A DNA stretch of 64,000 bases from Bdellovibrionia bacterium (GTDB lineage: Bacteria > Bdellovibrionota > UBA1018): positions 2,874-66,873 of the forward strand of contig JBJMMA010000259.1 in the NCBI GenBank assembly GCA_045805065.1, in the 5' to 3' direction. A program made the translations under genes and the position numbers. Below the pieces are notes generated by a model that saw only the letters and a program-made list of their open reading frames with translations, searched no databases and was not told the DNA's origin. Below are positions 21,958 to 64,000 of the stretch, one piece after another; position 1 is the stretch's first letter; the number at the start of each line of letters is the position of its first letter.

Positions 21958-21973
21958 ACTCCGCCGGCGGAGT
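21958..21973. promoter_or_regulatory. Perfect 16-bp palindrome ACTCCGCCGGCGGAGT, copy 1, 45 nt upstream of mutS
   Basis: Read directly from the sequence. Lies in a divergent intergenic region. Same core as copies at 33061..33074 and 53629..53644. Confidence 0.4.
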
Positions 21974-27540: not shown

Positions 27541-27705
27541 TCTGAGTTAAGTTCTGAAAAAACTATCTCCCTCTCCAAAGGGTCCGTCTTCTAGCGGTAG
27601 CGGTATCAAGCGGAAGTAGAAGCAGAAGCAGTATGAAGTTGCACGACGGAACCACAAGGCAGCCCAACCGGTAACACGGGGCAGATGTTGCCGACTTGGG
27701 CGAAA

Positions 27706-27744
27706 GGGGTAAGCGCTTCCTCAAAAAGGGAACGCTTACCCCTT
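27706..27744 (+). terminator. Hairpin (terminator-like) inside the 5' extension of the recombinase ORF
   Basis: Inverted repeat 'AGGGGTAAGCGCTTCC-tcaaaaag-GGAACGCTTACCCCT' followed by 'TTCCTT'. Confidence 0.35.
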
Positions 27745-27777
27745 CCTTATTACATAGCGCCAGTTAAAATAAGAGAA

Positions 27778-28710
27778 GTGAGCGCATCCCCGCAAACAAA
27801 CGTTCTGATCTACTGGATCAAATCCTTTCTTGAGGCCCGCCGCATCGATCGCGGGGCAAGCGATCGGACGATCGAGGCCTATAAGCGGGACCTGGAACAG
27901 TTTGCAAGCTCCCTCCCCGAAGGACTTGCGCCGGAAAAGATTTCCGCAAGCCATCTTCAGGATTACATCACAAAGCTTCATCATGATCAGCAGAAGCCCG
28001 CATCCATTGCTCGAAAGATCAGTGCTTTGAGACAGTTCTTCAAATTCTGCTGTCTTGAGCGGCGTCTGCTGGAAAACCCTGCTGAGAATCTCGAGTCTCC
28101 CAAGCAAGGTCAGAGACTTCCTAAAAATCTCTCGACCGATGAAGTCGGAAAACTTCTATCAGCCGCAGACACAGGGCTCACTTACTTGAACGAGACAAAC
28201 GCCGATGCCTTGCGCGCTCGCGATCGGGCGATTCTTTATCTGCTTTACGCAACGGGGCTTCGCATCTCAGAACTCACGAGCCTCACCCCTCACGATATTG
28301 ACCTTCAAATGGGTTATCTCCGGGTCAAGGGAAAGGGCGGCAAAGAACGCATCGCCCCTTTTGCCACGGTTGCCGGCGATCATCTGAGAAACTGGATGGA
28401 GAATCATCGCGCGACCCTAAAGCCCGCAACCGATCATGTTTTTATCAACCATCGCGGATTTGCCCTAACGCGCCAATCCGTCTGGAAAACTTTGAAAGAA
28501 CTGGCCCTTCAGGCTGGAGTCTCCACAACTCTTTCTCCTCACAAACTCAGGCATTCCTTTGCGACGCATCTTCTTCAGTCAGGAATGAATCTGCGCTCCC
28601 TTCAAATGCTGCTTGGTCACTCGGATCTTTCCACTACTCAGATCTATGCCCATGTGACGCCTGAACATCTTAAAAGCGCTCATAAGAAGTATCACCCTCG
28701 GGGCGAATAA
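27778..28710 (+). CDS. Tyrosine site-specific recombinase, XerC/XerD family
   Basis: C-terminal 'HKLRHSFATHLLQSGMNLRSLQMLLGHSDLSTTQIYAHV' with catalytic Tyr. N-terminal 'AYKRDL' SAM-like domain. Start placed at the in-frame GTG 27778 after the hairpin. The ORF is open from 27685. Confidence 0.75.
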   Translation: MSASPQTNVLIYWIKSFLEARRIDRGASDRTIEAYKRDLEQFASSLPEGLAPEKISASHLQDYITKLHHDQQKPASIARKISALRQFFKFCCLERRLLENPAENLESPKQGQRLPKNLSTDEVGKLLSAADTGLTYLNETNADALRARDRAILYLLYATGLRISELTSLTPHDIDLQMGYLRVKGKGGKERIAPFATVAGDHLRNWMENHRATLKPATDHVFINHRGFALTRQSVWKTLKELALQAGVSTTLSPHKLRHSFATHLLQSGMNLRSLQMLLGHSDLSTTQIYAHVTPEHLKSAHKKYHPRGE

Positions 28711-30625: not shown

Positions 30626-32566
30626 TTGCAATCACAGGGGGCACGTATGAGATTTCATTCTTTTTTGATGGCTGTAGCACTTTTAGGCGCACAGACCGCG
30701 TTTGGGGACGTCTGCAGCAAAGTATCCGAGAACCAGGTCGCACAATTGACCTGTCCTGCGGGTCAAACTATTACGAACATTGGTTTTGCGAGTTACGGGA
30801 CCCCCTCCGGCGCATGCGGCAGCTATAGTGTCAGCAGTTGCAACTCCAGCACCTCCAAGAGCGTCGTGCAATCGGCGTGTGTAGGCAAAGCGTCTTGCCA
30901 AGTCAGTGCTTCGAATTCCTTGTTTGGCGATCCTTGCAGTGGCATCACGAAATCTCTTGCCATTCAAGCCGTATGTTCGGCTCCTTCAACCTCAAACGCC
31001 TGCACGAGTGTGGCCGAAAGTCAGTCCGCGGCACTCACTTGTCCATCAGGAAAGGTCATTTCAAGCATTACCTTTGCGAGTTACGGGACCCCAACTGGCT
31101 CGTGCGGCAGCTTTGCAGTGAGCAGCTGTAACGCAAGCACCTCGAAGAGCGTTGTGCAATCGGCATGTGTAGGCAAAGCATCCTGCCAACTCAGCGCTTC
31201 AAATTCCTTGTTTGGCGACCCTTGCAGTGGCGTAGGCAAAAGGCTTTCTGTCCAGGCAGTTTGTTCTTCAGTGGTTCCAAAACCAAGCCCTAGTCCAAGT
31301 CCGACTGTGACTCCAAAGCCTACTCCGACGCCTACTCCATCGCCTACGCCGACTGCGACTCCGCTTCCAGCCGTGGGCTCAAATGTCGTCGTACCTAGCG
31401 CGATCGCTATCCCAGCCTCGACGCTTGCCTTGCCAAGTGGCATCGCCAACGGATCATCTGCTTCAAGCCCAACCGTTGTCAGTCTGCAATGCGGACAAGT
31501 TTATCGGGGAACGCTTGATCTCAGCTACAAATCCTACATCTCCGTGAAAGTCGCAGGTACCTGTGGCAAGCCGACCATCATTCCTGCATCCAATTCACAA
31601 GTCGGGATTAATGCTGTTGGCGCAAACACCATCAAGATCAGCGGCATCAAAATCCAGGGCGCATCTCAAGGGATCAACGTGAACAATGCGAAAACCATCA
31701 GCATTGATAACGTGGATATCTTGAACAGCTCCAACGCCGGGATTTTTTGCAGCGGTGTGAATGGCATGACTGTTTCGAACAGCAGTATCAGTAACAGCGG
31801 CGTCACGGGTGTCGACAGCCTGGGCGCGGTCAGCAACGCGACGATCACTAACACGACGGTTTATAATACCAGCAAAGGTAGCGGCGGCGCAGGTGGCGTC
31901 GGCATCTACTTCTATAACGGTACTAACAACCGGATCGATCACGTATCTGTCAGCAACTCTGCTTATCACGGAATTGTCTCTCTTGAGACAACCAATTCCT
32001 ATGTGACGAACAGCATAGCTCAAAATAGCTGCACAGGTCCTGATAAGGATTGTGGCGCAATCTACACGGCACAGAAAGCCACGCCACATGCCGGTCTTAA
32101 TCTGATCATCGACAACAACAAAGTGGTCACCAGTGGAGGCAGCGGCATCTACCTCGATGACTATGCCAATGGCGTGACCGTCTCATACAACGACGTCTCC
32201 GGATGTTCAGACGGGATGATATTGCACAATGGATACAACAACAATATCCATCACAATAAGATCGCCAACAGCGCGGTTGCTCACGTCACCATGGGCCAGG
32301 ACACTGGAACCATGCACGACAACGTGTTCACGTATAACGCGATGAACTCCACTCATGGCGAATACGGTTACCGACTTGAAACCGGAACCAACCTGAGCAC
32401 CTTTGCCCGGTATGACAACAACACCTACCAGAGCACCAATGTGAGCCACTTTGGCCGCCTCTGGCAGGGTGGCTCGAGCCCTGGCATCGACGCCAGCTAC
32501 AGCGCCTGGAAATCAACCTACATGCCAGGTCAGGATGCTCACTCAACGATGAACGGTGCCCAATAA
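30626..32566 (+). CDS. Secreted protein with two tandem SUEL-type (galactoside/rhamnose-binding) lectin domains, a Pro/Thr/Ser linker and a right-handed parallel beta-helix domain
   Basis: Signal peptide. A ~115-aa repeat occurs twice with 'ASYGTP.G.CGS..VSSCN.S.SKSVVQSACVGKASCQ.SASNSLFGDPCSG', matching the SUEL/Gal_Lectin cysteine pattern. Linker 'PKPSPSPSPTVTPKPTPTPTPSPTPTATP'. C-terminal 'NSS/NSG/NTT' repeat rungs are typical of pectin-lyase-fold beta-helices. Confidence 0.75.
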   Translation: MQSQGARMRFHSFLMAVALLGAQTAFGDVCSKVSENQVAQLTCPAGQTITNIGFASYGTPSGACGSYSVSSCNSSTSKSVVQSACVGKASCQVSASNSLFGDPCSGITKSLAIQAVCSAPSTSNACTSVAESQSAALTCPSGKVISSITFASYGTPTGSCGSFAVSSCNASTSKSVVQSACVGKASCQLSASNSLFGDPCSGVGKRLSVQAVCSSVVPKPSPSPSPTVTPKPTPTPTPSPTPTATPLPAVGSNVVVPSAIAIPASTLALPSGIANGSSASSPTVVSLQCGQVYRGTLDLSYKSYISVKVAGTCGKPTIIPASNSQVGINAVGANTIKISGIKIQGASQGINVNNAKTISIDNVDILNSSNAGIFCSGVNGMTVSNSSISNSGVTGVDSLGAVSNATITNTTVYNTSKGSGGAGGVGIYFYNGTNNRIDHVSVSNSAYHGIVSLETTNSYVTNSIAQNSCTGPDKDCGAIYTAQKATPHAGLNLIIDNNKVVTSGGSGIYLDDYANGVTVSYNDVSGCSDGMILHNGYNNNIHHNKIANSAVAHVTMGQDTGTMHDNVFTYNAMNSTHGEYGYRLETGTNLSTFARYDNNTYQSTNVSHFGRLWQGGSSPGIDASYSAWKSTYMPGQDAHSTMNGAQ

Positions 32567-32607
32567 CTTAGGCTCCTGATCTAGACATCGACACTAAGGA
32601 GAGGCGC

Positions 32608-32655
32608 TTGAAGTGATTGAAACCACTTTGAGCGCCTCACTCTTTTTGAGCTTGT
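32608..32655 (+). terminator. Hairpin terminator after the lectin/beta-helix gene
   Basis: Imperfect inverted repeat 'GAGGCGCTTGAAGTG...CACTTTGAGCGCCTC' followed by 'ACTCTTTTT'. Confidence 0.4.
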
Positions 32656-32701
32656 GAGTTCTCAGAGTGAGAATGGTTCAACAAGTTTTTTAATCAAGAA
32701 G

Positions 32702-32968
32702 TCAGCCGCGTTTTCGGACCAGCTTTTCGTAGGGCGGCAAGTTAATTTGCTCTTTAAGGGCTTCCTGATAGGCTTCTTCCAAGTGCCACGAGGTCTTTTC
32801 ATAGGAGAAAAGGAGCTCACAAAGACCGGCAGTATCCTCCGCATCAGGAGAAGCCTCGTCGAGCTCCTTTTTAAGCACGTCGATCATGTGATCGACAGCT
32901 TGGATAATCATGACCAAGTCATTTCCTCTAATCATCGGCATTGAAGTTCCTTTCTTCACCCGTCCCAA
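32702..32968 (-). CDS. Hypothetical small charged protein
   Basis: An 88-aa ORF with a helical, charged composition. No homology recognised. Confidence 0.3.
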   Translation of the reverse strand: MGRVKKGTSMPMIRGNDLVMIIQAVDHMIDVLKKELDEASPDAEDTAGLCELLFSYEKTSWHLEEAYQEALKEQINLPPYEKLVRKRG

Positions 32969-33060
32969 TAGTCATTAGGATGGACGGAAGAATCAGTTTA
33001 GTCATCCATAAACCAGAGTAACTGGGCTCACCCAACACTCAAAGCCGGTAAGGCGCGTCG

Positions 33061-33074
33061 CTCCGCCGGCGGAG
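33061..33074. promoter_or_regulatory. Palindrome core CTCCGCCGGCGGAG, copy 2, about 105 nt upstream of the AlkD-like gene
   Basis: Seen directly. Lies in a divergent intergenic region. Confidence 0.4.
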
Positions 33075-33179
33075 TCAACTCAGGCTCCTTTGCCGGACTC
33101 ATAATCGTCAGCAGGCTTTTCTCAAGCTCGGAGAACAAACGATGCTGCCCTTTTTCGCGCATTAGAATAAAGACTGATT

Positions 33180-39666: not shown

Positions 39667-39743
<77 letters not shown>

Positions 39744-39761
39744 TTAAAGCAAAAGTAAAAA

Positions 39762-39796
39762 GGGCCTGACTCAATGTCAGGCCCTTTTTCGTTTTT
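39762..39796 (+). terminator. Rho-independent terminator after tRNA-fMet
   Basis: Perfect hairpin 'GGGCCTGAC-tcaat-GTCAGGCCC' followed by 'TTTTTCGTTTTT'. Confidence 0.65.
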
Positions 39797-39940
39797 AGAA
39801 GCACGAACGCTGCAACCGTTTTTCAGCAGCCATGCTTCCAGGGTTCGTTTCTTCACTCCGACCCAGCTATCTTTACAAGGACGCCTGTCCTACTTACCTA
39901 TTCATTTGCATGTCACGCACCTTGCAGCAACGACGAGTAG

Positions 39941-42092: not shown

Positions 42093-42113
42093 TTGCTTGA
42101 CTCCTTTCAGTTT

Positions 42114-42140
42114 GGCTCATAACCCAAAGGTCGTAGGTTC
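42114..42140 (+). repeat. 27-nt internal fragment of tRNA-fMet (anticodon stem/loop to T-stem)
   Basis: 'GGCTCATAACCCAAAGGTCGTAGGTTC' is identical to 39696..39722 of the tRNA. It lies between the MEDS kinase stop and the SDR gene start. Confidence 0.5.
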
Positions 42141-42147
42141 TTCGGGT

Positions 42148-43458
42148 TCATGCCGCCCGTTGAGCCATCACTAGCGGAAGCTCCAGGAAGTATCGAATGT
42201 CCAAAGTCGGCATGCGCTCTGCTCGGAGTTTTCCTCCGTGCTGAGAAATGATCCCGGTCGCAAGGGTCCACCACAGCTCCCATCGATCTCGATTCACGTC
42301 CCATGGCGCCTTGCCCTTGAAGTGAATGTCGATCAACACATAAGGCCCTTCCACAACCGAGATGAAAATCGGGCTTTCCGCGTCAGCGGAAGCCATACCT
42401 GACCTCAACAAAACTTCAAATGCCCTGCTCAAGGATTTCTCGTCCCAATGGCCTATGATCCCTCGAGGACAGCTCAAAACAAACCGTCCTTTCTCAGATG
42501 CGCTCAAGCTCCGCACCAGATTATCCAGCAAATCATGCAGATCCAGATCCATGAGCTTGAACGGCATCGGATTGTCGGAAAGAATTTTGTTCAAGTCGAG
42601 CAAATCTTGAATGAGGACATCCGCCTTCTGAACCGCGAAAACGCTCCGATTCGTCAACTCATGTACCTGCTCATTGCCAGGGAACTTCCGAGTCAATAGC
42701 TGAGCACTCAAGAGAGCGGCCCCGAGCGGATTTCGGATATCATGAGTCAGTGATGAGACGAATTGCCTGCGAAGCCTTCGCTCCCGGGTCAGCGATTCGA
42801 TATATTGCTGTGATTCCTTGATCCGATTCTCAAGCGCCACATTGATCCGGTTGATCTCGGCTTTGGCTTGCTTAAGCTGAGGGACCTCAATCATCTCCCA
42901 CCGCCCTCTCCTGACAGCAATCGCGAACTCGTGCGTGCCCGTCACATCCAGGACCTTGTCCGCTCCACAGGACTTGGTCGCGTAACTGCACATGACGACC
43001 AAAGGACGGTTGACAATCAAGCGGTTGAGCTCCCTTTCGCACTGGCAGATGTAACTCCAATCATTCTCTGCCTGCCAGATGACATTGTCGTTCAACCGCA
43101 TGCCGACATAGCCCCGCTCTAACGCCTGCTTGAGCTTGGCATCCAGCGACTTCATGATCTCCTGGCCGTCGCATCTCCCACTCTTCGCGGGCGGGCTCAG
43201 ACTCTGAACGAACTCGATATTGCGTGCTTTCAAGTGCTCATCCAGGTTCGGCATAACTGACTTCAGGCTGCCTAAGGCCAGTTCCTCCGTTACGGGTCCA
43301 CCGATCACCCAAAGACAATACTCGCCGCTCTCCAAGCCGACTTTAAAATAGGGTACGAGCACCCCAAGCAGGTCAGCGCTCGTCTCGTAAAACTGACAGA
43401 AATGCGTGCCCCAAGAGATATCACCGACGGCCGCTATTCCGCTCTTCCTTAGATTCAT
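42148..43458 (-). CDS. Cytoplasmic sensor histidine kinase with an N-terminal MEDS-like (DcmR-type) sensory domain
   Basis: N-terminal 'WGTHFCQFYETSADLL' resembles the MEDS domain signature. H-box 'LTHDIRNPLGA' plus an HATPase_c domain. No TM segment. Confidence 0.65.
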   Translation of the reverse strand: MNLRKSGIAAVGDISWGTHFCQFYETSADLLGVLVPYFKVGLESGEYCLWVIGGPVTEELALGSLKSVMPNLDEHLKARNIEFVQSLSPPAKSGRCDGQEIMKSLDAKLKQALERGYVGMRLNDNVIWQAENDWSYICQCERELNRLIVNRPLVVMCSYATKSCGADKVLDVTGTHEFAIAVRRGRWEMIEVPQLKQAKAEINRINVALENRIKESQQYIESLTRERRLRRQFVSSLTHDIRNPLGAALLSAQLLTRKFPGNEQVHELTNRSVFAVQKADVLIQDLLDLNKILSDNPMPFKLMDLDLHDLLDNLVRSLSASEKGRFVLSCPRGIIGHWDEKSLSRAFEVLLRSGMASADAESPIFISVVEGPYVLIDIHFKGKAPWDVNRDRWELWWTLATGIISQHGGKLRAERMPTLDIRYFLELPLVMAQRAA

Positions 43459-46616: not shown

Positions 46617-46700
46617 CCAAAGGGAAAAATCCAGCCCCCGCTACCATTCAAGCAAAAGATAAAAGGGACAGTCCACTGGACTGTCCCTTTTTGTTTTTAA
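46617..46700 (+). repeat. Diverged direct repeat of the tRNA-fMet 3' end plus terminator (attR-like junction)
   Basis: 'AAATCCAGCCCCCGCTACCATTCAAGCAAAAGATAAAAGGG' aligns with 39723..39761 with 3 mismatches. A different perfect hairpin 'GGGACAGTCC-actg-GACTGTCCC' and 'TTTTTGTTTTTAAAGCACG' follow, paralleling 39762..39804. Confidence 0.6.
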
Positions 46701-46756
46701 AGCACGTATGTCTTAACTAAGTAAAACTGAGCTTCTTAGCTAACGAGTGGCGAGGA

Positions 46757-48130
46757 TTAATTCATTGGCGGAGGATTCGACAAGAACTCAGTCATTGTCG
46801 CACCTTGATCCTTGTTCGGCACGATTAAGGTGGCCGTACGCCAGTTCGGCGTCGCCAGGAGATAACGACCGTTACCTAAGCCCGGCGCATAACCCAGACT
46901 CCACCCCGTGGTAGGGGTAGGATAATAATCAGCCCCTGTGTCGATCACGTACTTGGCGACGCTGCGATCATCTGGCTTGGACGAATCAGCAACGACAAGC
47001 CTCGTATCCACAGCCACGAAAACCGCTCTTACGTCCGCAGGATTTGGAATCCCTTTGCCCCCGCTCGAGGAGGAGCTGCCGTAGCCGTGCTCGAAGTAAG
47101 GATAGGCAGGGCGAAAGGAAACGCCACCGTCGGATTCTACTTTTCGGTCAGGCGTGCCCGCGCTGGCGAATGGGTACTTCCACAGGCCAGTGTCCGGAGC
47201 CGTGACTTGGTTCCATTGCGACCACTTGCGCGTCGAATTGGAGAGAATGTAAACTCTAAGATTTTTGATTTCTACACGCGTGTTGGTCGCGGCGTTTCCT
47301 TGAGCCTCGTACAGCGTGTACCATGCGAGCAATCCGCTACACCAGGTAGGACGCTCCCCCGTCCACCAAGATGGGATTGAGCTTCCGGCTGGTGAGTACT
47401 GCGTGATCACAGGATTGTACTGCCAGTCGAACGAAGGATTGATCACCAGCGCCTCGCTTGGAGACGACATGTCTTTCACCACTTGGTCGATTGTCAGCCC
47501 AGTTGAGGAAGTCGACGAAGGCGTTGGACTTGGCTTTACAGTCGGTGTCGGACTTGGACTTGGCTTCGGAGTCACAGTTGGACTCGGGCTCGGAATTGGC
47601 GCGGCTCCACTTGCAAAGCTCCATTTCTGATTGGCACCGGCGCCGCAATCATAGAGAATCACCGGCGTTCCATTTGCGGAATTATTTGCGGCGACATCCA
47701 TGCAGCGTCCACTCGATGCACTCACAAGCCTTCCGTTCGAGAGTGACCATTTTTGAGTTACTGAATTGTTGCAGGTCTTGGAGACGATGGGATTCAAGTT
47801 GGCGCCAGTGCCCTTGATGTCCAGGCAAAGATTGCCAGCACCAGCAAAGCTCTTCAGCTGTCCTGAGGAGTTCAGAACGAAAGACTGATTGCTTCCGCCG
47901 TTACAACTCCAGATCTCAAGCGCCGCGCCAGAAGCAGTGCTGTTAGCAGTGACATCTAAGCATATATTGGTTCCAAGGCTGCTCTTCACTGCCCCTGATG
48001 CTACGGTCGTGACTGCCGCAGCTTTGGCTGGATGGGCGGAGGCGATCAATGCAAGAGCAAGTCCTCCCGACCAGGGCGCAACTCGCTTTAAAAATGCTCT
48101 ACTCTTAATCGCTCTACAGGTTTTCATTTC
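46757..48130 (-). CDS. Secreted ricin-B (beta-trefoil) lectin domain protein with a Pro/Thr/Ser linker and an unknown C-terminal domain
   Basis: Signal peptide from the internal Met 48130. QxW repeats 'NQSFVL', 'TQKWSL', 'NQKWSF' lie around 'CLD' motifs. Linker 'PSPSPTVTPKPSPSPTPTVKPSPTPSS'. The ORF extends to 48178. Confidence 0.7.
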   Translation of the reverse strand, partial: EMKTCRAIKSRAFLKRVAPWSGGLALALIASAHPAKAAAVTTVASGAVKSSLGTNICLDVTANSTASGAALEIWSCNGGSNQSFVLNSSGQLKSFAGAGNLCLDIKGTGANLNPIVSKTCNNSVTQKWSLSNGRLVSASSGRCMDVAANNSANGTPVILYDCGAGANQKWSFASGAAPIPSPSPTVTPKPSPSPTPTVKPSPTPSSTSSTGLTIDQVVKDMSSPSEALVINPSFDWQYNPVITQYSPAGSSIPSWWTGERPTWCSGLLAWYTLYEAQGNAATNTRVEIKNLRVYILSNSTRKWSQWNQVTAPDTGLWKYPFASAGTPDRKVESDGGVSFRPAYPYFEHGYGSSSSSGGKGIPNPADVRAVFVAVDTRLVVADSSKPDDRSVAKYVIDTGADYYPTPTTGWSLGYAPGLGNGRYLLATPNWRTATLIVPNKDQGATMTEFLSNPPPMN

Positions 48131-48440
48131 ATTCCCCCGACAGGAACTGTCTATTCCGTTCCTTATTATCGCACCCAAGCTACAGTAATATCAGCTGTGT
48201 CTCTATCGACCAGTCTCGAAGACGCATAAATTCGCTGAACTTTCGCGAATTAAAGTCAATCTGTATACGCACATAGGCAATGAAATGTTTTGCATCAAAT
48301 CGAGCACCCTCTCCTTGCTCAATAGACGTTGTATAACCGATATCGGACCCCAATCTGACGAGGCCTCGGTGCCTTGCTGGGCCGCTCGCCCCCTTTTCAT
48401 CGCATGATTACCCCCTTGCATCGTGTGGTAGAATAGACGC

Positions 48441-49082
48441 ATGCATACGCAACTTGATCTGCAAGATTTCAAAACGTCTCATCCAGTAACAACTCTTTTC
48501 AGACGCACGCTCATTACCGGAGCAAGTGTCAGCGCCGATTTTTGCGCACCTAGCCCTGGCAAGCGGCTAGGCTGGAAATACGGCGGAAAAGACAGCGTTG
48601 TGACATTGGCTCGGGGAGGTACGCCGGGCCGTGAAACCATTCGACGATTGACTCACGATGACATCGCGGATCGGACAATCGTGATTGCCATCGATTTCTT
48701 CTTCTGGGATTCGACCTCCCATTTGCTCGATGCAAGCCTCACCGCTCTTCAAGACCTCATTGAGTTGTGCAGAAAGCCGGGAGTTCCGCTAATCTTGGGC
48801 GACATTCCGCATCTTCTTCCAGGAATGCAGCCGGGTCGTGCCAAACTAAACGCTGCGATCCACGCAGCAGCCAAGGCATCCAGTCATTGCTCTGTCATGG
48901 AACTCGATGAGCTTCACCGACAAGTGCTTTGTGAGGGAATCGAATTCGGAGGGCGCCGGTATCGACTGACTGATCTTGCGCCCGATGGTTTGCACTTAGC
49001 TGAGGTGGCAGGAAATTATGTAGCTGAACGGCTTTTGGCTACAGTAACCAGGGATTTCACAAAGCTTGCACAACTGGGATAA
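48441..49082 (+). CDS. SGNH/GDSL-like hydrolase
   Basis: Block V-like 'PDGLHLAEVAGNYVAERL' (DxxH) and an N-terminal 'ITGASVSADF' variant of block I. Confidence 0.45.
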   Translation: MHTQLDLQDFKTSHPVTTLFRRTLITGASVSADFCAPSPGKRLGWKYGGKDSVVTLARGGTPGRETIRRLTHDDIADRTIVIAIDFFFWDSTSHLLDASLTALQDLIELCRKPGVPLILGDIPHLLPGMQPGRAKLNAAIHAAAKASSHCSVMELDELHRQVLCEGIEFGGRRYRLTDLAPDGLHLAEVAGNYVAERLLATVTRDFTKLAQLG

Positions 49083-49102
49083 AAGATTCAGGGGTTTTTG
49101 TT

Positions 49103-51004
49103 CTATTGGGTTGAGCCACCTTGTAAAAAGAGCGACTGAAGGCGATTCATCAGCTGAGGGTTATCGATGCCACCGGGCCGGCTCACGCAGCTCTTTATCT
49201 TGTCACGATTGGAAATCTCAGCTTTGATCAAATCACAAGTCTTTTGCCTTTCTCTTGTACTGAGGGGCAACGATAAGCTCATTAATGCCTCTATCCTGAC
49301 CTCGGGCTCATCTTTCGTTTTCTCCACTAAGCATTCAAATTGCGTCTCCCCTAATTCAGGACCGGCAGTTTGGATCTGACTTGAGATCTTTGAAACAGAG
49401 CACGGCCCTTCTAACAGGTTTATCGCTTTTTCCTGAGGATCGTTTTCGACTGCGTCTTTTCTAAGGCGACTCAACATTAGCCAGGTGTTCTTGCGTAGCA
49501 CTGGCCTGCACACCGCTGGGTCTGGTTCTCTCATACATCGCTTGAAGGAAATGCCAGCCACCCATTCCAGCTTAGATTTTTGGATCTCACTCAACGGCCT
49601 TTTGAGATCCTTAATCTCATCCTGTCGATATCGAATCAATGTTTCAATGTTCGATTTGTATCCATAGTCTTTGGGTCGAGTTAATTCGCCGAACCAAGAT
49701 ACCAAGTCTTCATTGCTCCGTGCGTGGCGTATCTTTTTGATCTCAGCATTTAAATTCTCAATTTGCGTATTTATTTCCGTCGGAGTCAGGGCATGAATGG
49801 CGGCGATGACTTCACTCTTTGACTTTTCCAACGCTTCGTCCATCAATTTTTCAACACGTTTTACATTTTCATCATTACAACCTACGAAAGATTCGATTGT
49901 CCTCAGATATCGACTCTGGGAATCCAGCTCTGAACGAGCGTACTCAAATACTGCAAAATGGGTCGCCTTAGTTGCAAGGCTTAACACGTCGGGCGCTTGA
50001 GAAACGAAAGCATTGCAGGGCGAGACAATCTCGTTTCGCTCTGGAGGTCCCAGACAATAGTCGGCCAAGGTCAGATCGAAAGAGCTTTGAGGCAGAATGA
50101 GATATTGCTTAGCTCGCTCCGAGTTGTAAACCGACGACTTCATGACATCGAATAAAGCCAGTGTTCCCTCTTGGTAATGCTTTCTCGCGTTCGAATGCGC
50201 ATCGAGAAAAGACATCCCTTTTTCTAATTCCTTATTGAGATACAGAAGGTAGGAATTTGAATGATTGAGTTGAAGACACTCGGGACGATTATCGCAATTT
50301 TTCTGCTCAATTGCAGACGGAACACCTTTGTAGGCTTCAGGATCGGAAGGCTTTTCATAGTGAATCGAGACTAAACCAACCTGACTTCCAGAGGTTGAGC
50401 TGAACACCTGCACACCTGGAATGTCGGATACTGCGCGTATGGCATTTCCGCCAAAGCACGACAGCGTATTCAAATTAACACGGCCGTTGGGATTCTTCGT
50501 TTTATACTCGAGCAAAGACTTCCGAAGATCGCCTAGTCCAAAAAATTCCACATTTTCAGTAGAAGGAACGAATGCATAAGCAAATCGTACCGGTCCGTTC
50601 ACTTCTTCATTGTCTGTTAACTGGCTCGATAATTCGTCCTGTCGCAGGTAGCTTCTTGGAAAACGACCAGGATCTCCCTCAAGGGGCGATGATTTATCCG
50701 CTTGGTAAACTGTCCCATGAGAATAAATGTGAATGTCCAGTCGATCCACGCCGACTTGATCCGCGATCAACTTCCGCAGTTTCTCCGCGTTATCTCCAGG
50801 CGAGGCCCTGAACTGGATGACCTCATAGCCTTTCTTATAATAGCTCATGGAAGTGAGGTACGCAGAGTGGGCAAAATTCGATTTTAAGTTTCGGTCGTCG
50901 CCCCCATCGACGACAATGGCGACTTTTCGCCCCGCCGTCGCATATTGCGGAAAGCTTACTGTCAAAGCTGTTAAAGCGAGAACAAAAGACCGTAAGCGGT
51001 TCAT
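49103..51004 (-). CDS. Secreted protein with an N-terminal caspase-like (clan CD cysteine peptidase) domain and a large helical C-terminal region
   Basis: Signal peptide. 'KVAIVVDGGDD', a His-Gly dyad 'HIYSHGT' and a candidate catalytic Cys 'LNTLSCFGGNA', in the order seen in caspase/legumain/clostripain-type folds. Confidence 0.5.
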   Translation of the reverse strand: MNRLRSFVLALTALTVSFPQYATAGRKVAIVVDGGDDRNLKSNFAHSAYLTSMSYYKKGYEVIQFRASPGDNAEKLRKLIADQVGVDRLDIHIYSHGTVYQADKSSPLEGDPGRFPRSYLRQDELSSQLTDNEEVNGPVRFAYAFVPSTENVEFFGLGDLRKSLLEYKTKNPNGRVNLNTLSCFGGNAIRAVSDIPGVQVFSSTSGSQVGLVSIHYEKPSDPEAYKGVPSAIEQKNCDNRPECLQLNHSNSYLLYLNKELEKGMSFLDAHSNARKHYQEGTLALFDVMKSSVYNSERAKQYLILPQSSFDLTLADYCLGPPERNEIVSPCNAFVSQAPDVLSLATKATHFAVFEYARSELDSQSRYLRTIESFVGCNDENVKRVEKLMDEALEKSKSEVIAAIHALTPTEINTQIENLNAEIKKIRHARSNEDLVSWFGELTRPKDYGYKSNIETLIRYRQDEIKDLKRPLSEIQKSKLEWVAGISFKRCMREPDPAVCRPVLRKNTWLMLSRLRKDAVENDPQEKAINLLEGPCSVSKISSQIQTAGPELGETQFECLVEKTKDEPEVRIEALMSLSLPLSTRERQKTCDLIKAEISNRDKIKSCVSRPGGIDNPQLMNRLQSLFLQGGSTQ

Positions 51005-51225
51005 GAAGCTACCCTCTGCACGACAAGCGCAGACCCCTCGATTGCTTATCGGAAAAATCGGCAGCTCCCTTAATAGCCTTTAAAATCATGTATCTGCGAG
51101 CGGTGATCTATTGACACGACTGAGCTAGCGACATTTTTTCTACGCTGCCTTCCGCAGATCTCCATCCGGCCCCTGGAGACGCGGCCACAGGTGGAGCAGA
51201 TTCTTTGAGTGGTCGAACCGGCGAC

Positions 51226-51747
51226 TCAACCTGCTGGTCGCAACAATTCTCCCTCGGCCTTTGTATAAATTAACTTTCGCGTGTCAAAATGATTCGCCTC
51301 AAGCCGACGCAGGACTTTGGACAATACCGCTTTTGGCATCCTGGGCTTACGACTCAAAATCCAGAGGTATTTCCGACTCGGCTCGCTGACTACCGAATAC
51401 GAGTAATCAGAAGCAAGATCGATGATCCAATAATCTCCGCGCCCAATTTCCAGCCAGCGCAAAAAACCAGGAACAAAACTTACCTTCAACTTGGCGTGGG
51501 TTCGCAAGTCTGCAACCTCGGCCACTCCCTCCACCGTCTTAAGTCATCGTGTATTCAGCCGTGGCATCGGTGCAGTCTTTCTGAAAAGAATTCGGAAATC
51601 GAGCGATCTCGTACCACTTGCCCAAGTAGCGCGAGAGATCGACCGAAGGAACTGTTTCCAGCTCCGGGGCATCATCGGGTTTTGCACACTACAGGCAACT
51701 GTGATATCGGAATAAAGCGCGCCTGACAGCCCAAAAGCAAGCGCCAT
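51226..51747 (-). pseudogene. blc: Bacterial lipocalin (Blc-like outer-membrane lipoprotein) gene with a -1 frameshift just after the lipobox
   Basis: Frame A (51544..51747) gives the signal peptide and lipobox 'ITVACS'. Frame B gives 'PELETVPSVDLSRYLGKWYEIARF...AKLKVSFVPGF...YLWILSRKP', the lipocalin SCR1/SCR2/SCR3 motifs, continuous to 51226. The frames switch near 51687. A stop (TAG) in frame B lies inside the lipobox codons. Confidence 0.55.
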
Positions 51748-51784
51748 TCAAAGAGGTTCTCCTATTGCACCGCGAATTAAAACC

Positions 51785-53041
51785 ATGGCGCCATCCGTAA
51801 AGCAGGACGAAAAACTCCACTCTCACATAGAAGATCTCCGCGGGACAAGCCGACTTGCCATTGAAGCAACTCAAGGCGTTTGTGATCTTATTGAAGCCAT
51901 GCATGAGACGGTCGCTAAGGGGCCCTACTTGTTAGGAAATCCACTTCAACGCCCAACGCGTACGATCAATCAAATGGTTTACGGAAGCATCCGTTGCGTA
52001 ACAAACCTTGTAGGAGCAAGTATCGATGGTGTCCTCGGAAGACTCACACGGCTTATCGGTCCGGGTCATAGAGTCTCCCGCTCCTCTCAGGAAGATGCCG
52101 TACTTGCAGTGCTCAATGGAGTCCTGGGCGACTATCTGCAGGAGACCGGTAATCCTCTAGCCATCCCGATGCAGCTACGGCACACCGGCGCTCCTCTTGT
52201 GCTCGAGCCAAAGGCGTTGCATGCGGCATTACCGAAGGCAGGCCCCAAACTCCTCCTTTTGGTCCATGGCTCGTGCCTGAGTGACCGACAATGGTCTCGA
52301 CAAGGGCATGATCACGGGGCGGAGCTCGCGCGCGACTTGGGATACACGCCGATATATCTGCACTACAACACCGGCCTCCACATTTCGACTAACGGTCGCA
52401 CGCTCGCCACACTCCTTGATCAGCTTGTCACAGCGTGGCCTGTGCCCCTGGAAGAAATCGCCATTTTATCCCACAGCATGGGAGGGCTCGTGGCTCGTAG
52501 CGCTTGTCACATTGCAGAGGAGCAAAACTATCTCTGGCGAAGGAAGTTACGCGTGGCGATCTTTCTTGGGACACCTCACCAGGGAGCACCGCTTGAGCGT
52601 GTGGGCAACTGGATCGACCATCTCTTAGTCATCAACCGTTACAGTGCCCCTTTCGCGCGGCTTGGTAAAATCCGCAGCGCCGGCGTAACTGACATGCGCC
52701 ATGGCAACGTGTTGGACGAACACTGGCAAGGCCGCGACCGCTTTGCTCATGGCCGCGACACCCGTACACCTTTGCCACTACCAACGAATATTTCCTGCTA
52801 CACGATCGCCGCAACAAAGGGCCCCAAAGGAACGGGAAAGCTACGAAGCGACGGCATTGTCCCCGTGAACAGCGCACTTGGCATGCATAAGTTGGCAAAG
52901 CATAGCCTTGTCTTCCCAGAAACACACCAATGGATCGCCTACGGAACAAGCCATCTCGATCTGCTCAACCGCCACGAAGTCTATACAACGGTCCGGAAAT
53001 GGCTCGAAGCACCCAAGCCAGCAAGCCTACCCAGTGGATGA
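51785..53041 (+). CDS. Alpha/beta hydrolase, lipase-like (PGAP1/EstA-like)
   Basis: 'LLLLVHGS' and nucleophile elbow 'ILSHSMGGLVAR'. Confidence 0.55.
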   Translation: MAPSVKQDEKLHSHIEDLRGTSRLAIEATQGVCDLIEAMHETVAKGPYLLGNPLQRPTRTINQMVYGSIRCVTNLVGASIDGVLGRLTRLIGPGHRVSRSSQEDAVLAVLNGVLGDYLQETGNPLAIPMQLRHTGAPLVLEPKALHAALPKAGPKLLLLVHGSCLSDRQWSRQGHDHGAELARDLGYTPIYLHYNTGLHISTNGRTLATLLDQLVTAWPVPLEEIAILSHSMGGLVARSACHIAEEQNYLWRRKLRVAIFLGTPHQGAPLERVGNWIDHLLVINRYSAPFARLGKIRSAGVTDMRHGNVLDEHWQGRDRFAHGRDTRTPLPLPTNISCYTIAATKGPKGTGKLRSDGIVPVNSALGMHKLAKHSLVFPETHQWIAYGTSHLDLLNRHEVYTTVRKWLEAPKPASLPSG

Positions 53042-53452
53042 GAGTAATCCTTCAGCCTTCTGCAGCTGACTTTCAGCAACTTTCGGCTGGTTCTTGTTCA
53101 AAGCCTGCTCCGCGTTTCCGAGCTGCTTGTCCGCACTGGAGAACGGCGAGGCGCCTGCCTTGCCCCCCGTCATTCCTTCGACCTGCCCTACTCCGGAGCC
53201 GGACTTCAGGGCTTTCAGGTTCTCACGAGCGCTGCTGATATCGGTTTTCGCGGTCGCGTAGTCTTTTTTGCCAATATTGCTCCGAGCCGATTTGATGTTG
53301 TTGAGCGCGTTCTTGGCTGCTGAGCTCATGTCCTGACTACCGGCCTGCCCTTTTGCGCCAGGGACCTCCGGCAACTGGGGCTGCGCATTTGCCGCAGTTC
53401 CGCCGAGCACAAGCATGAATGCGGCTAGAAGCACGTGTAATTGAAACTTCAT
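53027..53452 (-). CDS. Small secreted Lys/Ala/Ser-rich protein
   Basis: Signal peptide 'MKFQLHVLLAAFMLVLGGTAANA'. The mature part is a low-complexity helical repeat. Confidence 0.45.
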   Translation of the reverse strand: MKFQLHVLLAAFMLVLGGTAANAQPQLPEVPGAKGQAGSQDMSSAAKNALNNIKSARSNIGKKDYATAKTDISSARENLKALKSGSGVGQVEGMTGGKAGASPFSSADKQLGNAEQALNKNQPKVAESQLQKAEGLLSSTG

Positions 53453-53574
53453 ATGACATCACTCCCTCTTCTCGGGTGAGTTGCAAGATCTGGCGCCACC
53501 ACAATGGCGCGCGACCAAAACCTCAGATCACTGCTCAGGCCTTGAACCGGCTTGCAGCACGCTTGAAAGGCGGC

Positions 53575-53612
53575 TTTTTTGTCTTAAGCACGTGCTTCTT
53601 AGCTAAGTACTT
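53575..53612. repeat. Junction motif 'TTTTTTGTCTTAAGCACGTGCTTCTTAGCTAAGTA', related to the sequence following the att-like repeats
   Basis: Aligns at about 30 of 38 nt with 46679..46716. 'GCTTCTTAGCTAA' also occurs at 46721. 'TTACAAGGAC' at 53658 also occurs at 39880. Contains the palindrome AAGCACGTGCTT. Confidence 0.35.
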
Positions 53613-53628
53613 CTGCGCTTTCTAGTGA

Positions 53629-53644
53629 ACTCCGCCGGCGGAGT
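53629..53644. promoter_or_regulatory. Perfect 16-bp palindrome ACTCCGCCGGCGGAGT, copy 3, between the divergent small secreted protein gene and the class 3 lipase gene
   Basis: Seen directly. Identical to the copy at 21958..21973. Confidence 0.4.
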
Positions 53645-53858
53645 GACGACTTTTACAAGGACAAAAGCGAATACTCTGACGTTCGATCTTGTCACCACAA
53701 TCTGAAACCTCCACCAGGGTGTGTTCTGTCCCGGTAAGCTATAAAATCAAACACATCTGAAGCATTTCACTGCGTCTTGCGGGACCCATCTATTTTGTGC
53801 AGTATAAAGAGATAAACTATAAACATCAGGATTTATTGTCACGCCACCGCGGGATAGG

Positions 53859-55061
53859 TTGAACGTCATGAATGGGCGCGCTTTAATGGATTGGTCCAAA
53901 GTTTTAGTTTTTTCATCGCTACTTTTGTCAAACAACGCTCTGTCTGGAGAATGCTTTCGCCAAGTGCCAACCTTCGGTTTTAGCAATTTCAATGATCTTG
54001 CCAATAGCATCGGCGATGCAAAAAGTGAGTTGACCTCCTTTCTACCGGACAAAAAGCTGAGCCGTGATCAGATCGACAGGTTGGCCGCCGAAGCTTCTGA
54101 CGTTGTATACAACCTGTTCAAAACTGCGGGTGACAACCCCGCCAATTCATCACGTATTTTTCCAAACGACGCGATCGTGCCAGTGGATCATTTTACTTCA
54201 GCAGCTGCGCTTGTGGGTGCTCCCATGGGTTATCGAATCGCCGCGAGCTGGAACGATAATGCTCAAAACGAAGCCAAGCGAGGCGTTTTTACCGCGCTTT
54301 ATGAGCCCAATACTTATGGTCAGCCAGTGATATTCGCCTTTAAAGGAACAGTGACACGTGACGATTGGAAAGAAGACCTCTTCCATCAAGGCGGAACTCA
54401 GCTGCAATCGGTTTTTCGAATGCTGAGCCCACGCAATTCGGCCGGCGCGACCGTCTACAAAAGTCTGCTAAAACGCCTGGAGAGTGGGCAAGACGTTTTG
54501 ATCACTGGACATAGTCTGGGCGGTGGCCTTGCTCAAGCCACTGCTTACTTGTTGCAAAAAGATCTCGACGACTATCGCCGTCACGAAATCGCCCAAGGAA
54601 GAGAGCCAAAACCGGGTAATCTTCATCTTGTGACTTTTAACGCACTCGGTGGTCAGCGGACGCTGAAGGTATTTGCTAAGGCCTTCCCTAAAGATCGAGA
54701 GATCACCCCGATCCTCTATAAGGGTACCCGCCTCGAATCCAGTCCAATCGACTCTCAAATCGACGACGCGGCAGTGCTCTCTCTTCAGCCGCGTAACTAT
54801 GCTTATCCAGGCGATCCAGTATCTCCACTTTTCGATCACATTGGTCCAAAATTGATCGTCTCGAAAAAGGAGCCAAAGCGAAAAGTAACGGGCATTGCCG
54901 AAGCATCCGCCCACATGTATACCGCGCTCGGTCGGTTAAGACTTGCAGGAGGGTTTGCGCCAAGCGTTCTGAACTCAATTCACGACAAAGTCTCAGAAGC
55001 CGTCTACGACCATAGCATCAAGCTCATTCGCACGGCGATCGACTCTGATTTCAGACCTTAA
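53859..55061 (+). CDS. Secreted class 3 lipase family protein
   Basis: Signal peptide. 'LITGHSLGGGLAQA' matches the Lipase_3 nucleophile motif GHSLGG. Confidence 0.75.
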   Translation: MNVMNGRALMDWSKVLVFSSLLLSNNALSGECFRQVPTFGFSNFNDLANSIGDAKSELTSFLPDKKLSRDQIDRLAAEASDVVYNLFKTAGDNPANSSRIFPNDAIVPVDHFTSAAALVGAPMGYRIAASWNDNAQNEAKRGVFTALYEPNTYGQPVIFAFKGTVTRDDWKEDLFHQGGTQLQSVFRMLSPRNSAGATVYKSLLKRLESGQDVLITGHSLGGGLAQATAYLLQKDLDDYRRHEIAQGREPKPGNLHLVTFNALGGQRTLKVFAKAFPKDREITPILYKGTRLESSPIDSQIDDAAVLSLQPRNYAYPGDPVSPLFDHIGPKLIVSKKEPKRKVTGIAEASAHMYTALGRLRLAGGFAPSVLNSIHDKVSEAVYDHSIKLIRTAIDSDFRP

Positions 55062-60561: not shown

Positions 60562-62637
60562 ATGAAGACATTAAAACTCGATTGGAGCGAGCTTTCATCC
60601 GATTCACGAGGCTTTGGCCTGGTTGAAATCATGATTGCTGCAGGCATCGGAAGCGTTGTGATGCTCTCGATGTCATCGATGATGACATCGATGAATCAGT
60701 CACTTCGCGGCACAAGAACTCTTTCTTCGCGCGATCAATTATACACCCGATTCGGTCGCGAAGCGGCCAACCCCACCTCGCTGGGACAAAGTCTCACCTT
60801 CGTCGGTACGACGGCATTCCCGGCAAATGGTCCGGGAAGCATGATGGATAAATGCGTGAATGGCGGCACGCCAAATGGTTGTGTCGCACGCAATTCCACC
60901 ACTTATGCTCCCATCAGCTATGGCTTCACCCTGACTGATGCATTAGGAAATCCTGTTGCAGGCCCAGACACCGCGAACGCGGCCGTCTATGACACGATGG
61001 GCGCAGCCTGCGGAAGCGCATCAACAACATCACCGTCGATCAACTGCCCAGTGATTGCTTACACTTCCTTTGTACCAGTCTGTCCTGGCGCTACGCCCGC
61101 CGCCAGTGTGCAATGTGATCGCGCTACGAGCATCATCGTCACTTACACTCTGGAACAGCGAAGCGGCATCTCGATTCCAGCCGGCACAACCTTTGCGGTT
61201 TTTAAACCCATGGCGGGAACGGTCACAACAGCGATCCCCTTTCCTGCCACAGGAACAACAGGCGTTGGAAATTTTCTCGCCAAATGGGTGTCTAACACGC
61301 AACTGAGCTCAAGTCAGGTTTACGAGGACCCCATCAATCAATACATCGGCCTGGGTACTACCACGCCTTTGTCCAAGCTGACGATTCAAGACACGAGAAC
61401 TGATACTGCAGCAAGCGCTCAGGGCGTATCCTTGATCTCCAGCCAGCAGGTGAATCCCTCGACAACCAGTAACACGCAATTTTCCGCAGGTCTTTTCATG
61501 TCGAAAGGCGTCTCCAATGTGAATCTTATGAGAGGGATCTCCTCGCTTGCAGGAATTGCGAACTGGTCGGCGCCTACTGCTACTACGCACTCCATTTACG
61601 GCACGGAGGGAGTGGCTCTAAATACATCGACGGGCGTGGCCGACTCGGCTTTTGGAGTGGCGGGAACAATCCGAAATCAAGCGGGTGGATCGATTAACTT
61701 TGCAAAAGGGGTCGGCGGATATGTGTACAACGATTCCACAGGGACGATCACAAATGCCTATGCAGGGCATTTCCAAATCAACCCTCCTCAGTCACCTCCT
61801 CTCACCGGCAATCCAATTGTCAATGCTTACGGTGTCTATATTGATCGGATCGATAATGCGACTAACAAGTGGGCGCTTTATTCTAACGACAGCAGTGCAC
61901 CTAGTTATATCGCTGGAACTTTAACGATTGGTCCGACGGGCGCATATAACGGCGCTGCGAGCCGTTTATACGTTGGAGCGGATGGCACCACGGGCCGATC
62001 CATAAATGCAGCAGGTACCATTAACGCTTCGGGCGCAGATTTCGCGGAGTGGGTCGATTGGAAGAAAGGACCTAAGCCCGAAATGGGTTCAGTCGTTTTA
62101 TATAAGGGAATTTACGTCGTTGTTTCATCAGAAAAAACAGCGGCGTTTGTTGGTAACGACAAAAAGGATTTGAGTAGATCCATCCTGGTCGCCTTCGCAG
62201 GCCAACTCCCCGTATTGATCCGAGGCCCAATTCACGTCGGTGATTTGGTGATTGGAAATGGAGATGGAACAGCCAAAGCAGTTGCTAGAAAAGACGTCAC
62301 GATCGACATGGCTCAAAAAACCGTAGGCACGGCGTGGGAGACGTCAAATGACCCTGCCGTAAAAAGAGTAAACGTCGCCGTAGGACTTGGCTTAAACGGT
62401 GGTGGCGTACGGGATATAGCTTCGCTTTCAGCTGATGTTCAAAAAGGCAAAGCCGAGAATGAAAAGCTGAAGCAAGAAAACGTCGCTTTGGCCAAAGAGC
62501 TCGGCGATCTTAAATCGCGTTTAGATCAAATCGAGAACTCACTCAAGGCCCGCGCAGATTCATCCTATTGGAAAGTTGCCCGAAGTGAAATTTTCAAATT
62601 CACTCAGACGCTAGCTCTATGCTCAGGAGGGACTTAA
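60562..62637 (+). CDS. Large (691 aa) protein with a type IV prepilin-like N-terminal cleavage/methylation segment, a Thr/Ser/Gly-rich beta-rich body and a C-terminal coiled coil
   Basis: '...SDSRG|[18 protein letters not shown]' fits the prepilin G/F-x-x-x-E(+5) pattern followed by a hydrophobic helix. C-terminal heptad-like '[30 protein letters not shown]'. Confidence 0.6.
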
Positions 62638-62638: not shown

Positions 62639-64000
62639 ATGGAAAAGCTTTTTTCGAAAAGCTCTTTCATAGGTGAATCCCGCGGGTTGGCCATTTTAAC
62701 CTGCGCACTTACCCTCTTTCATTCTTCTCACGCAGCGTTCGCATTTTCAGAAAATGCGCAGACCTTTACGTATCAGGGCCAATTGCTCGACAGCCTGGGC
62801 AGTCCCCTTCTCGATCACACTGTTTCGATTGTTCTTTCGATCTACAATCCGGCCAAGACCTGTCTTCTCTATCAAGAGAGCCAGACCGTCGACACTTATG
62901 CGACCGATGGCATGTATTCGGTTCAAGTCGGACAATCCACAACTTCGGGAGGAAAACGCACTGCGAACGATCCGGGTTTGAGAATGGCAGCCATCTTCAG
63001 AAACGATGGCTCACAAGTCCGCTCCGCGGGCGCAACCTGTTCAGGCGGCTACATCGCATCACCCGGTGATGCGCGTCTCATGCAGGTGCAAATCACGCCA
63101 AGCTCCACCGGTGTTGCAGTCACTCTTTCGCCTGATGAAACCATTGATTCAGTTCCACAAGCCTGGTCCGCTGAAACCTTTCAGGGCATTACGCTTGGAA
63201 ATTTTATTCAGCTCTCAGGTTCTGATGCAGTTATTCCCTCGGGCAATGGCTTGAAAGTGAATGGAGCTGAAGTCATCGACTCAAACGGAAATTGGGTGGG
63301 ATCAAACTCAGGTCTCGTGGGCCCTACCGGTGCTACCGGAGTTGCTGGTGCAACGGGAGCGGTCGGACCTACAGGTGCTTCTGGTGCAACGGGAGCCACT
63401 GGCGCAGTTGGCCCAACTGGCATAACTGGACCTGCTGGCGCGGCTGGCGCTACCGGTCCAACTGGACCAGCAGGTTCCGTTGGTGCGACGGGTGCGACGG
63501 GCGTTACTGGCGCGACGGGCGCAACAGGAACGAATGGCACGAACGGTACCAATGGAGCTACCGGCGCGACGGGTGCCACCGGCGCAACAGGAGCTACAGG
63601 CACCAATGGCACTAACGGTACCAATGGTGCAACAGGTGCCACTGGAGCCACCGGAGTTACGGGAGCAACTGGCACTAACGGTTCAAATGGAGCTACCGGT
63701 GTCACTGGCGCAACCGGTGCATCAGGAACGAATGGTACCAACGGCTCAAATGGCGCTACCGGTGCGACAGGTGCGACTGGAACCACCGGGGCTACGGGAG
63801 CAACAGGCGCTACTGGAACGAACGGTACAAATGGAATCAACGGCGCTACTGGAGCAACCGGTATCACTGGCGCGACGGGTGCTACCGGCGCAACAGGAGC
63901 CACAGGCACCAATGGTGTAACTGGAGCCACCGGCACTACTGGCGCGACAGGTCCTACCGGAGTTACTGGTGCGACTGGTCCTACAGGAACGAATGGTACT
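62639..64000 (+). CDS. Secreted collagen-like (Gly-X-Y triple-helix repeat) protein, 3' end beyond the window
   Basis: ATG 62639 is preceded by 'AGGAGGG' 7 nt upstream and lies 1 nt after the upstream stop. Signal peptide '[35 protein letters not shown]'. A ~190-aa N-terminal domain follows. From about 63320 there are more than 225 residues of uninterrupted G-X-Y (GPT/GAT/GTN...). Not in the ORF track because no stop occurs before the window end. Confidence 0.75.

Follow-up and report, generated by a model that had tools for sequence, protein, structure and literature searches.

Cis-mobilizable elements (CIMEs), known from the ICESt1/ICESt3 literature, are att-flanked remnants of genomic islands without recombination and transfer modules. 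tRNA islands of the Islander/TIGER type, and the tandem arrays that they form, lie on the 3′ side of a tRNA gene in serial blocks with pseudo-tRNA 3′ fragments downstream, are atypical in composition and differ in content among close relatives. Here we compare both with a 6.9-kb block (46.7–53.6 kb) in a contig from the metagenome-assembled genome (MAG) of an uncultured Bdellovibrionia bacterium (GenBank assembly GCA_045805065.1, contig JBJMMA010000259.1). The window, to which all coordinates refer, is a stretch of 64,000 nucleotides (nt) of this contig. With tRNA islands and their arrays the block has all of the traits just listed in common. It differs in that no integrase gene lies in or beside any of the blocks at this locus, its distal repeat consists of a terminator tail with flanking sequence instead of tRNA sequence, its repeats are 74–82% identical instead of near-identical, and no empty site was observed. 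Like the CIMEs, it is cargo-only DNA between att-like direct repeats, placed beside other blocks and without mobility genes of its own; unlike them, it has no cognate integrase-bearing element in the window, its repeats are degenerate, and their identity as att sites is one that we infer. Pavlovic et al. 2004 (pmid 15073287), as the work is cited in PMC5812530, described the tandem accretion of islands, and hotspots at Asn-tDNA genes are documented in Klebsiella (PMC4891358).

Did the block arise by serial accretion of islands at one tRNA hotspot, as the original prediction for this DNA, made from the letters alone, had proposed? The evidence presented below leans towards a reading in which an accessory region, composite and by now decayed, grew by repeated insertion at the 3′ side of tRNA-Met, with 46.7–53.6 kb as its distal part.

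Results

Diverged repeats, terminator tails and tRNA remnants at the junctions

The only tRNA gene annotated in the window is a tRNA-Met (CAT), and an Rfam search of 38–56 kb matched this tRNA alone. Three sites downstream of it are named A, at 39.8 kb, which follows the intact tRNA; B, at 46.7 kb; and C, at 53.6 kb.

39667–39743, plus strand: intact tRNA-Met (CAT), called by ARAGORN and by Rfam RF00005 (61 bits); anchor of the hotspot
39757–39805, plus strand: copy A, a strong terminator hairpin, T-run and AAGCACG; fold −26.6 kcal/mol, z −6.0
42110–42140, plus strand: pseudo-tRNA fragment, tRNA positions 27–57, 30 of 31 identical, with a degenerate continuation to about 42160
46627–46646, plus strand: pseudo-tRNA 3′ end, tRNA positions 58–77, 19 of 20 identical
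46661–46691, both strands scanned: hairpin of copy B, a strong bidirectional terminator; fold −27.7 kcal/mol, z −6.8
46688–46745, plus strand: junction motif B, a T-run, AAGCACGT and two TCTTARCTAA(GT/CG)A copies (TCTTARCTAAGTA-like) at 23-nt spacing
53560–53630, plus strand: copy C, a weak 5-bp hairpin, T-run, AAGCACGTGCTT and TCTTAGCTAAGTA, the last two both palindromic at C

The sequence at 46.7 kb recurs at 53.6 kb beyond chance, as had been claimed. Local alignment of 46688–46745 with 53576–53630 yields a score of 26 over 57 columns with one 2-nt gap and 74% identity, the two copies being in direct orientation, and this score was reached in 0 of 2000 shuffles. When set against every other 260-nt segment of either strand, the B query scored 8.3 on average (standard deviation 1.5), and the runner-up, at 14.5, was copy A. 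The 24-nt pattern AAGCACGTNNNNCTTANCTAAGTA, at up to 3 mismatches, is found in the window at B and C alone (expected 0.00). The 13-mer TCTTAGCTAAGTA, at up to 2 mismatches, has 5 matches where 0.49 are expected, two of them in B, 23 nt apart, and one, palindromic, in C. In an all-against-all self-BLAST, B–C ranks third among the pairs that are neither coding nor of low complexity, two pairs of tRNA remnants standing above it; the full set of higher-scoring pairs consists of tandem repeats, paralogous domains, low-complexity linkers, hairpins and tRNA remnants.

All strings quoted in the original prediction were located where it had placed them: AAGCACGTATGTCTTAACTAAGTA at 46700–46723, GCTTCTTAGCTAA at 46731–46743, AAGCACGTGCTTCTTAGCTAAGTA at 53586–53609, and TTACAAGGAC at 39873 and 53653. 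The connection drawn from this last string between 39.8 kb and 53.66 kb did not survive, as 102 of 2000 shuffles reach its score (p≈0.05) and 3457 distinct 10-mers recur in the window; with the 39.8-kb flank as query, 53.6 kb is absent from the top matches. A search for the B/C motif in viral contigs and in 85 fetched loci (designated by L-numbers) found no occurrence. An instance of AAGCACGT near the end of one relative, L006, was rejected as a chance coding match.

Copies A, B and C all show the same order of hairpin, T-run and AAGCACG. A and B have in common the last 20 nt of the tRNA, a spacer, a strong hairpin, the T-run and AAGCACG (83 columns, 82% identity), and the score of 14.5 between their tails was matched in 0 of 2000 shuffles. 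Their stems differ in sequence, yet each is self-complementary; the hairpin of B can also terminate the minus-strand ricin-lectin gene beside it. In the relatives, a hairpin and T-run are kept behind the tRNA, but these hairpins are their own and AAGCACG is missing, so that the three AAGCACG copies are specific to the present locus.

The two pseudo-tRNA pieces add to this picture. The piece at 42110–42160, flanked by an NmrA-like gene on one side and a MEDS-HisKA kinase gene on the other, splits the segment of 39.7–46.7 kb, which makes this “first island” itself a composite of at least two insertions. The piece at 46627–46646, which possibly reaches back in degenerate form to about 46593, carries the T-stem allele CCAGC, as does the tRNA of the closest relative (L006, 12844–12863), whereas the resident tRNA has CCTGC; a foreign allele is what would be expected if an insertion had exchanged the 3′ end of the tRNA. 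By eye, the resident tRNA shows a C1 x U72 mismatch and GGG/CCC pairs of the anticodon stem, which are initiator-type features, and it may be a tRNA-fMet gene.

Copy C is of a different kind. It lies in the promoter region between two divergently transcribed genes, where no gene ends; a terminator has no purpose there, and C therefore looks vestigial. It coincides with a drop in GC content from 0.56 to 0.47 at 53.5 kb. A tRNA remnant near C was considered and rejected, since nothing tRNA-derived rises above chance on either side (53453–53575 and 53610–53860). Hence C repeats the terminator tail and downstream flank, not a tRNA att core.

The window contains three copies of a 16-nt perfect palindrome, ACTCCGCCGGCGGAGT (21958–21973, 33060–33075 and 53629–53644; 0.02 expected), which is always intergenic. 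It also occurs in the relatives L006 (4896–4913 and 5912–5929) and L007 (553–570), where the flanks are unrelated and the palindrome alone is common to them; an operator, a recombination site and a REP-like element are all conceivable. The second copy in the window stands at the edge of an insert (32575–33078). Between the same β-helix/SUEL-lectin and DNA-alkylation-repair genes, L006 carries an unrelated insert (4774–6158), which is about 1.4 kb long and includes an HNH endonuclease gene, as against about 0.5 kb in the window; the flanks of the inserts are 84–87% identical.

The tRNA-Met gene is a variable hotspot among relatives

The region is preceded on its left by core genes, namely infB, mutS, a Xer-type recombinase gene, trpS, scpA, scpB, rluB and a HAMP histidine kinase gene. 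RluB homologues of 73–87% identity came from metagenomes, and the left-flank kinase had distant matches only among GTDB species genomes, whose representatives do not include this lineage. In four related lineages (L006/L009, L010/L011, L013 and L083) the order ScpA-ScpB-RluB-(histidine kinase)-tRNA-Met is kept, left-side proteins are 78–98% identical to those of the window, and the tRNA-Met is 97–100% identical at the syntenic position. Right of the tRNA, each lineage carries something else: acetyltransferases and a MazG/HAD set in L006; acetyltransferases, an M23 peptidase, a GntR aminotransferase and, about 6 kb downstream, a serine-recombinase fragment in L010 (12736–12993) and L011 (9541–9798); an integrase fragment and an rve transposase directly behind the tRNA in L013 (11572–12885); and small genes without assigned functions in L083. 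The window proteins encoded right of the tRNA had zero matches in any of these loci.

With a conserved left flank and unrelated cargo in four lineages, the site is a variable hotspot, and on this point the original prediction was borne out: the lineages agree up to tRNA-Met and then diverge wholly. A right flank matching that of the window was recovered in none of them. Two further contigs end early, about 0.1 kb (L081) and, in a more distant relative, 1.6 kb (L085) past RluB. The right-flank lipase and hybrid kinase had no orthologue among metagenome contigs (identity at most 37%), and all right-side proteins that were looked up are singletons at 90% identity. Because these right-flank genes are without close relatives, the point at which synteny resumes was not located.

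Mobility genes are absent and composition is atypical

A Pfam search of the open reading frames (ORFs) of interest of at least 60 amino acids (aa) in 39.7–64 kb revealed no integrase, recombinase, transposase, excisionase or conjugation gene. Outside the block, 39.9–64 kb encodes oxidoreductases, the MEDS kinase, an esterase, a class II aldolase, an SRPBCC protein, a lipase, a response regulator, a hybrid kinase, a TIGR02147-type regulator and unknowns; PADLOC defence models had no match. The sole gene of the tyrosine recombinase/integrase family in the window (27685–28710) is followed by an M50 peptidase gene and trpS in all relatives, which identifies it as a syntenic core gene of the Xer type. 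As for the hallmarks of tRNA islands, the left end of the block abuts the pseudo-tRNA 3′ end at 46627–46646 and a terminator, and its composition is atypical. Two defining features, a tRNA-derived distal repeat and a recombinase gene inside, are absent, and we therefore describe the block as working like, or deriving from, an integrase-mediated tRNA island, not as a mapped island.

Codon usage was scored as the likelihood of synonymous codons under a model of 27 core genes, all taken from the window, which themselves range from z −1.8 to +2.5.

46.7–53.5 kb, five genes of the block: codon-usage z −2.3 to −3.5
141-aa gene of the block: codon-usage z −1.6, GC 0.57
39.9–46.2 kb: codon-usage z −1.0 to −2.2, GC about 0.55
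53.9–62.6 kb, right flank: codon-usage z −1.3 to −2.1, GC about 0.50

The genes of the block have the most atypical codon usage in the window. Their GC content changes from gene to gene (lectin 0.54, 213-aa protein 0.52, 633-aa protein 0.47, lipocalin 0.50, last two 0.56–0.57), with steps at 48.1, 51.1 and 53.5 kb. The block is thus a foreign-looking mosaic of at least three compositional pieces, not a single unit.

Two features at the far end of the right flank were noted in passing. Positions 60562–62637 encode a protein of 691 aa that has a methylation motif of the prepilin type at its N terminus, a long Gly/Thr/Ser-rich middle and a C-terminal coiled coil; NCBI names it “FtsB family”, and it may be a surface protein of a fibre or pseudopilin-like kind. 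The stretch 63200–64000 is a long, imperfect tandem repeat; the minus-strand ORF within it (63208–63936) is of low complexity, of the PVAPVAP type, and may not be a real gene.

The block encodes a secreted protein with a caspase-like fold

49103–51004, minus strand: secreted 633-aa protein with signal peptide and an N-terminal caspase/legumain-fold (clan CD) domain of about 200 aa; GC 46.5%

The remainder of this protein is a helical, Cys-containing C-terminal domain of about 400 aa. Compared with Pfam and NCBIfam it matched nothing even at E 1–10, and neither the single sequence nor a 25-sequence profile matched any PDB sequence. Against 5.8 billion clustered proteins it found itself alone. 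An exhaustive HMMER search of 1.84 billion representatives yielded 35 relatives, none of which exceeds 34% identity. Across an alignment of 25 sequences, H96, G156 and C183 never vary, and G97 is conserved in at least 90%. The AlphaFold model built on the alignment (pLDDT 80.8, pTM 0.80) places β-strands 86–94 and 175–181 before the His-Gly pair (H96-G97) and C183, respectively, and displays the α/β/α fold of the caspase-haemoglobinase type, with H96 and C183 arranged as the predicted catalytic dyad of clan CD. The earlier call of a caspase-like peptidase is thereby confirmed at the level of fold and dyad.

Clan CD unites legumain (C13), caspases and metacaspases (C14), GPI transamidase, gingipain (C25), clostripain (C11) and CHAT. 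With these families the 633-aa protein shares the order of strand-His-Gly followed by strand-Cys, and with legumain, the gingipains and clostripain also the property of being secreted. It differs from them by the lack of any sequence match (C13, C14, C11, C25, CHAT) and by its large Cys-containing helical C-terminal domain. Its named relatives come from Bacteriovorax MAGs only, that is, from Bdellovibrionota as far as members are named. The closest homologue (L084, 8001–10097) lies beside a trypsin-like peptidase and a resolvase; as it has no neighbours in common with the window, there is no conserved operon. The family appears to be undescribed and rare, and without a Pfam model.

Remaining cargo genes

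46757–48178, minus strand: secreted ricin-B lectin protein (PF00652, 9.4e-25, residues 61–186)
48441–49082, plus strand: 213-aa protein without signal peptide, a singleton at 90% identity
51226–51760, minus strand: Blc-type lipocalin pseudogene (PF08212, 1.8e-24, profile positions 55–145 only)
51785–53041, plus strand: PGAP1-like α/β-hydrolase of 418 aa (PF07819, 6e-9), without signal peptide
53027–53452, minus strand: small secreted protein of 141 aa with a weak, sub-threshold YfdX match
53859–55061, plus strand: class-3 lipase (PF01764) with signal peptide, in the right flank and outside the claimed block

The lectin protein probably starts at an internal Met near 48130, from which a signal peptide is predicted heuristically. 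The ricin domain, to which the only PDB sequence matches belong (CBM13 modules of xylanases and galactosidases), is followed by a Pro/Ser/Thr linker and a C-terminal domain of about 250 aa in which no Pfam family was detected. The DNA of this linker (47496–47599) is 64–80% similar, in inverse orientation, to 31277–31379 in the SUEL-lectin/β-helix gene, which may be mere low-complexity convergence. In the lipocalin pseudogene, three-frame translation puts each of three pieces, namely the lipoprotein signal and the N- and C-terminal parts, in a frame of its own, with an internal stop after ...AEYTMT and a segment missing. The 418-aa hydrolase, which looks intracellular, displays, by eye, an HSMGG nucleophile elbow and has full-length homologues of 31–44% identity on γ-proteobacterial and actinobacterial replicons (Photobacterium, Acinetobacter and Tsukamurella). 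Clustering at 90% identity leaves the 418- and 141-aa proteins, like the 213-aa protein, as singletons.

How well does this content fit a “secreted hydrolytic toolkit”? The ricin lectin, the frameshifted lipocalin and the α/β-hydrolase had been recognised correctly, as had the peptidase. The assignment of the 213-aa protein as an SGNH hydrolase found no support in Pfam, NCBIfam or PDB sequences and stands unverified: its GASVS (block I-like) and DGLH (block V-like) motifs were seen by eye only, and a single-sequence AF2 model (pLDDT 44) is unusable. Three of the five intact products carry a signal peptide while two do not, and hydrolase evidence exists for two of the five, so that the description as a toolkit is overstated. 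The cargo is a loose accessory gene set, not an operon or a defined system, and a role in degrading prey is speculation.

Discussion

How could such an arrangement have come about? In the history that we find somewhat favoured, each insertion at the 3′ side of tRNA-Met would have brought in or displaced a module made up of tRNA 3′ end, terminator hairpin, T-run and AAGCACG. The traces of these events would be the three terminator tails at 39.8, 46.7 and 53.6 kb and the two pseudo-tRNA pieces at 42.1 and 46.6 kb, the 46.7/53.6 pair bracketing the block as diverged direct repeats in the manner of att-like scars. The inserting enzyme, presumably a site-specific recombinase, would since have been lost or would have acted in trans; later the cargo would have decayed, as the lipocalin pseudogene suggests, and been reshuffled into at least three compositional pieces.

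For serial accretion at a tRNA hotspot speak the significant B–C repeat, the tail common to A, B and C, the vestigial look of C, the pseudo-tRNA remnants, the hotspot itself with recombinase debris in some of the relatives, the atypical codons and GC steps, the pseudogene and the uniqueness of the 633-aa protein, along with the singleton status of the 213-, 418- and 141-aa proteins. Several observations weigh against it: no mobility gene is found in 39.7–64 kb; the right end has no tRNA repeat, nothing tRNA-derived standing beside C; the B–C repeat is only 74% identical over 57 nt; an empty site or resumed synteny was never observed; and the right-flank genes (53.9–62.6 kb) are themselves singletons without close metagenome relatives and with atypical codon usage. 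Since the genes beyond 53.6 kb are just as unique, and atypical as well, synteny does not establish the right edge. Finally, in a MAG contig a mis-join at a conserved tRNA is possible.

The absence of mobility genes and the uniqueness of the right-flank genes lend themselves to a second reading, which we consider possible though rather unlikely, namely that no discrete second island exists, everything from tRNA-Met to beyond 62.6 kb forming one large, old mosaic region shaped by numerous minor gains, rearrangements and losses, in which the tail at 53.6 kb is one of several internal scars and marks no right border. In keeping with it, another secreted lipase is encoded just outside the block, the block falls into at least three pieces by GC content and codon usage, and the pseudo-tRNA piece at 42110 makes the “first island” composite as well. 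Against this reading speak the direct orientation of the B–C repeat, its position on a sharp step in GC content at 53.5 kb, and the genes of the block, which are more atypical than those of the right flank.

Could the B/C sequence instead be a functional cis-element, an operator or a terminator/untranslated-region module unrelated to integration? At C, two overlapping perfect palindromes, AAGCACGTGCTT and CTTAGCTAAG, do lie in a divergent promoter region, and B has two tandem half-degenerate copies 23 nt apart. Yet the element occurs at two loci only in 64 kb and at 0 of the 85 fetched loci, its B copy lies in a 3′ untranslated region and not in a promoter, and the similarity includes the terminator T-run, in the order seen in copy A. 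We regard this explanation as highly improbable.

Still less probable is a break of synteny caused by a chimeric MAG join through the 77-nt tRNA, with the DNA right of 39.74 kb stemming from another strain or species: the tRNA is 100% identical in four lineages of related samples, the fetched contigs of relatives end about 0.1 kb after RluB (L081) or 0.2–7.8 kb past the tRNA, and GC content and codon usage shift right of the tRNA, but the right-hand DNA holds two pseudo-tRNA-Met remnants and tail copies and hence is native to a place beside tRNA-Met in some related genome, the named members of the 633-aa family all belong to Bdellovibrionota, and neither the B–C repeat nor the gene content would be affected.

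Repeated insertion at tRNA-Met, the reading that we prefer, invites a bolder extension, which we think unlikely: the 633-aa gene would found a new clan CD family, built of a signal peptide, a legumain-like catalytic domain with a His-Gly/Cys dyad and a helical domain rich in disulfides, that would be confined to predatory Bdellovibrionota, act as a secreted anti-prey effector and move in integrase-less, att-scar cassettes through the tRNA-Met hotspot by means of a recombinase acting in trans.

The island in itself is ordinary. What it reveals, for an uncultured clade of Bdellovibrionia, is a hypervariable insertion hotspot at the tRNA-Met gene that lies downstream of scpAB-rluB, and contig breaks at this site warrant caution. 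Remnants without an integrase can be recognised by their copies of the tRNA terminator tail, which aids the annotation of these MAGs. The 633-aa family, in turn, provides a candidate for a protease with a part in predation, and it may merit a Pfam or MEROPS entry of its own.

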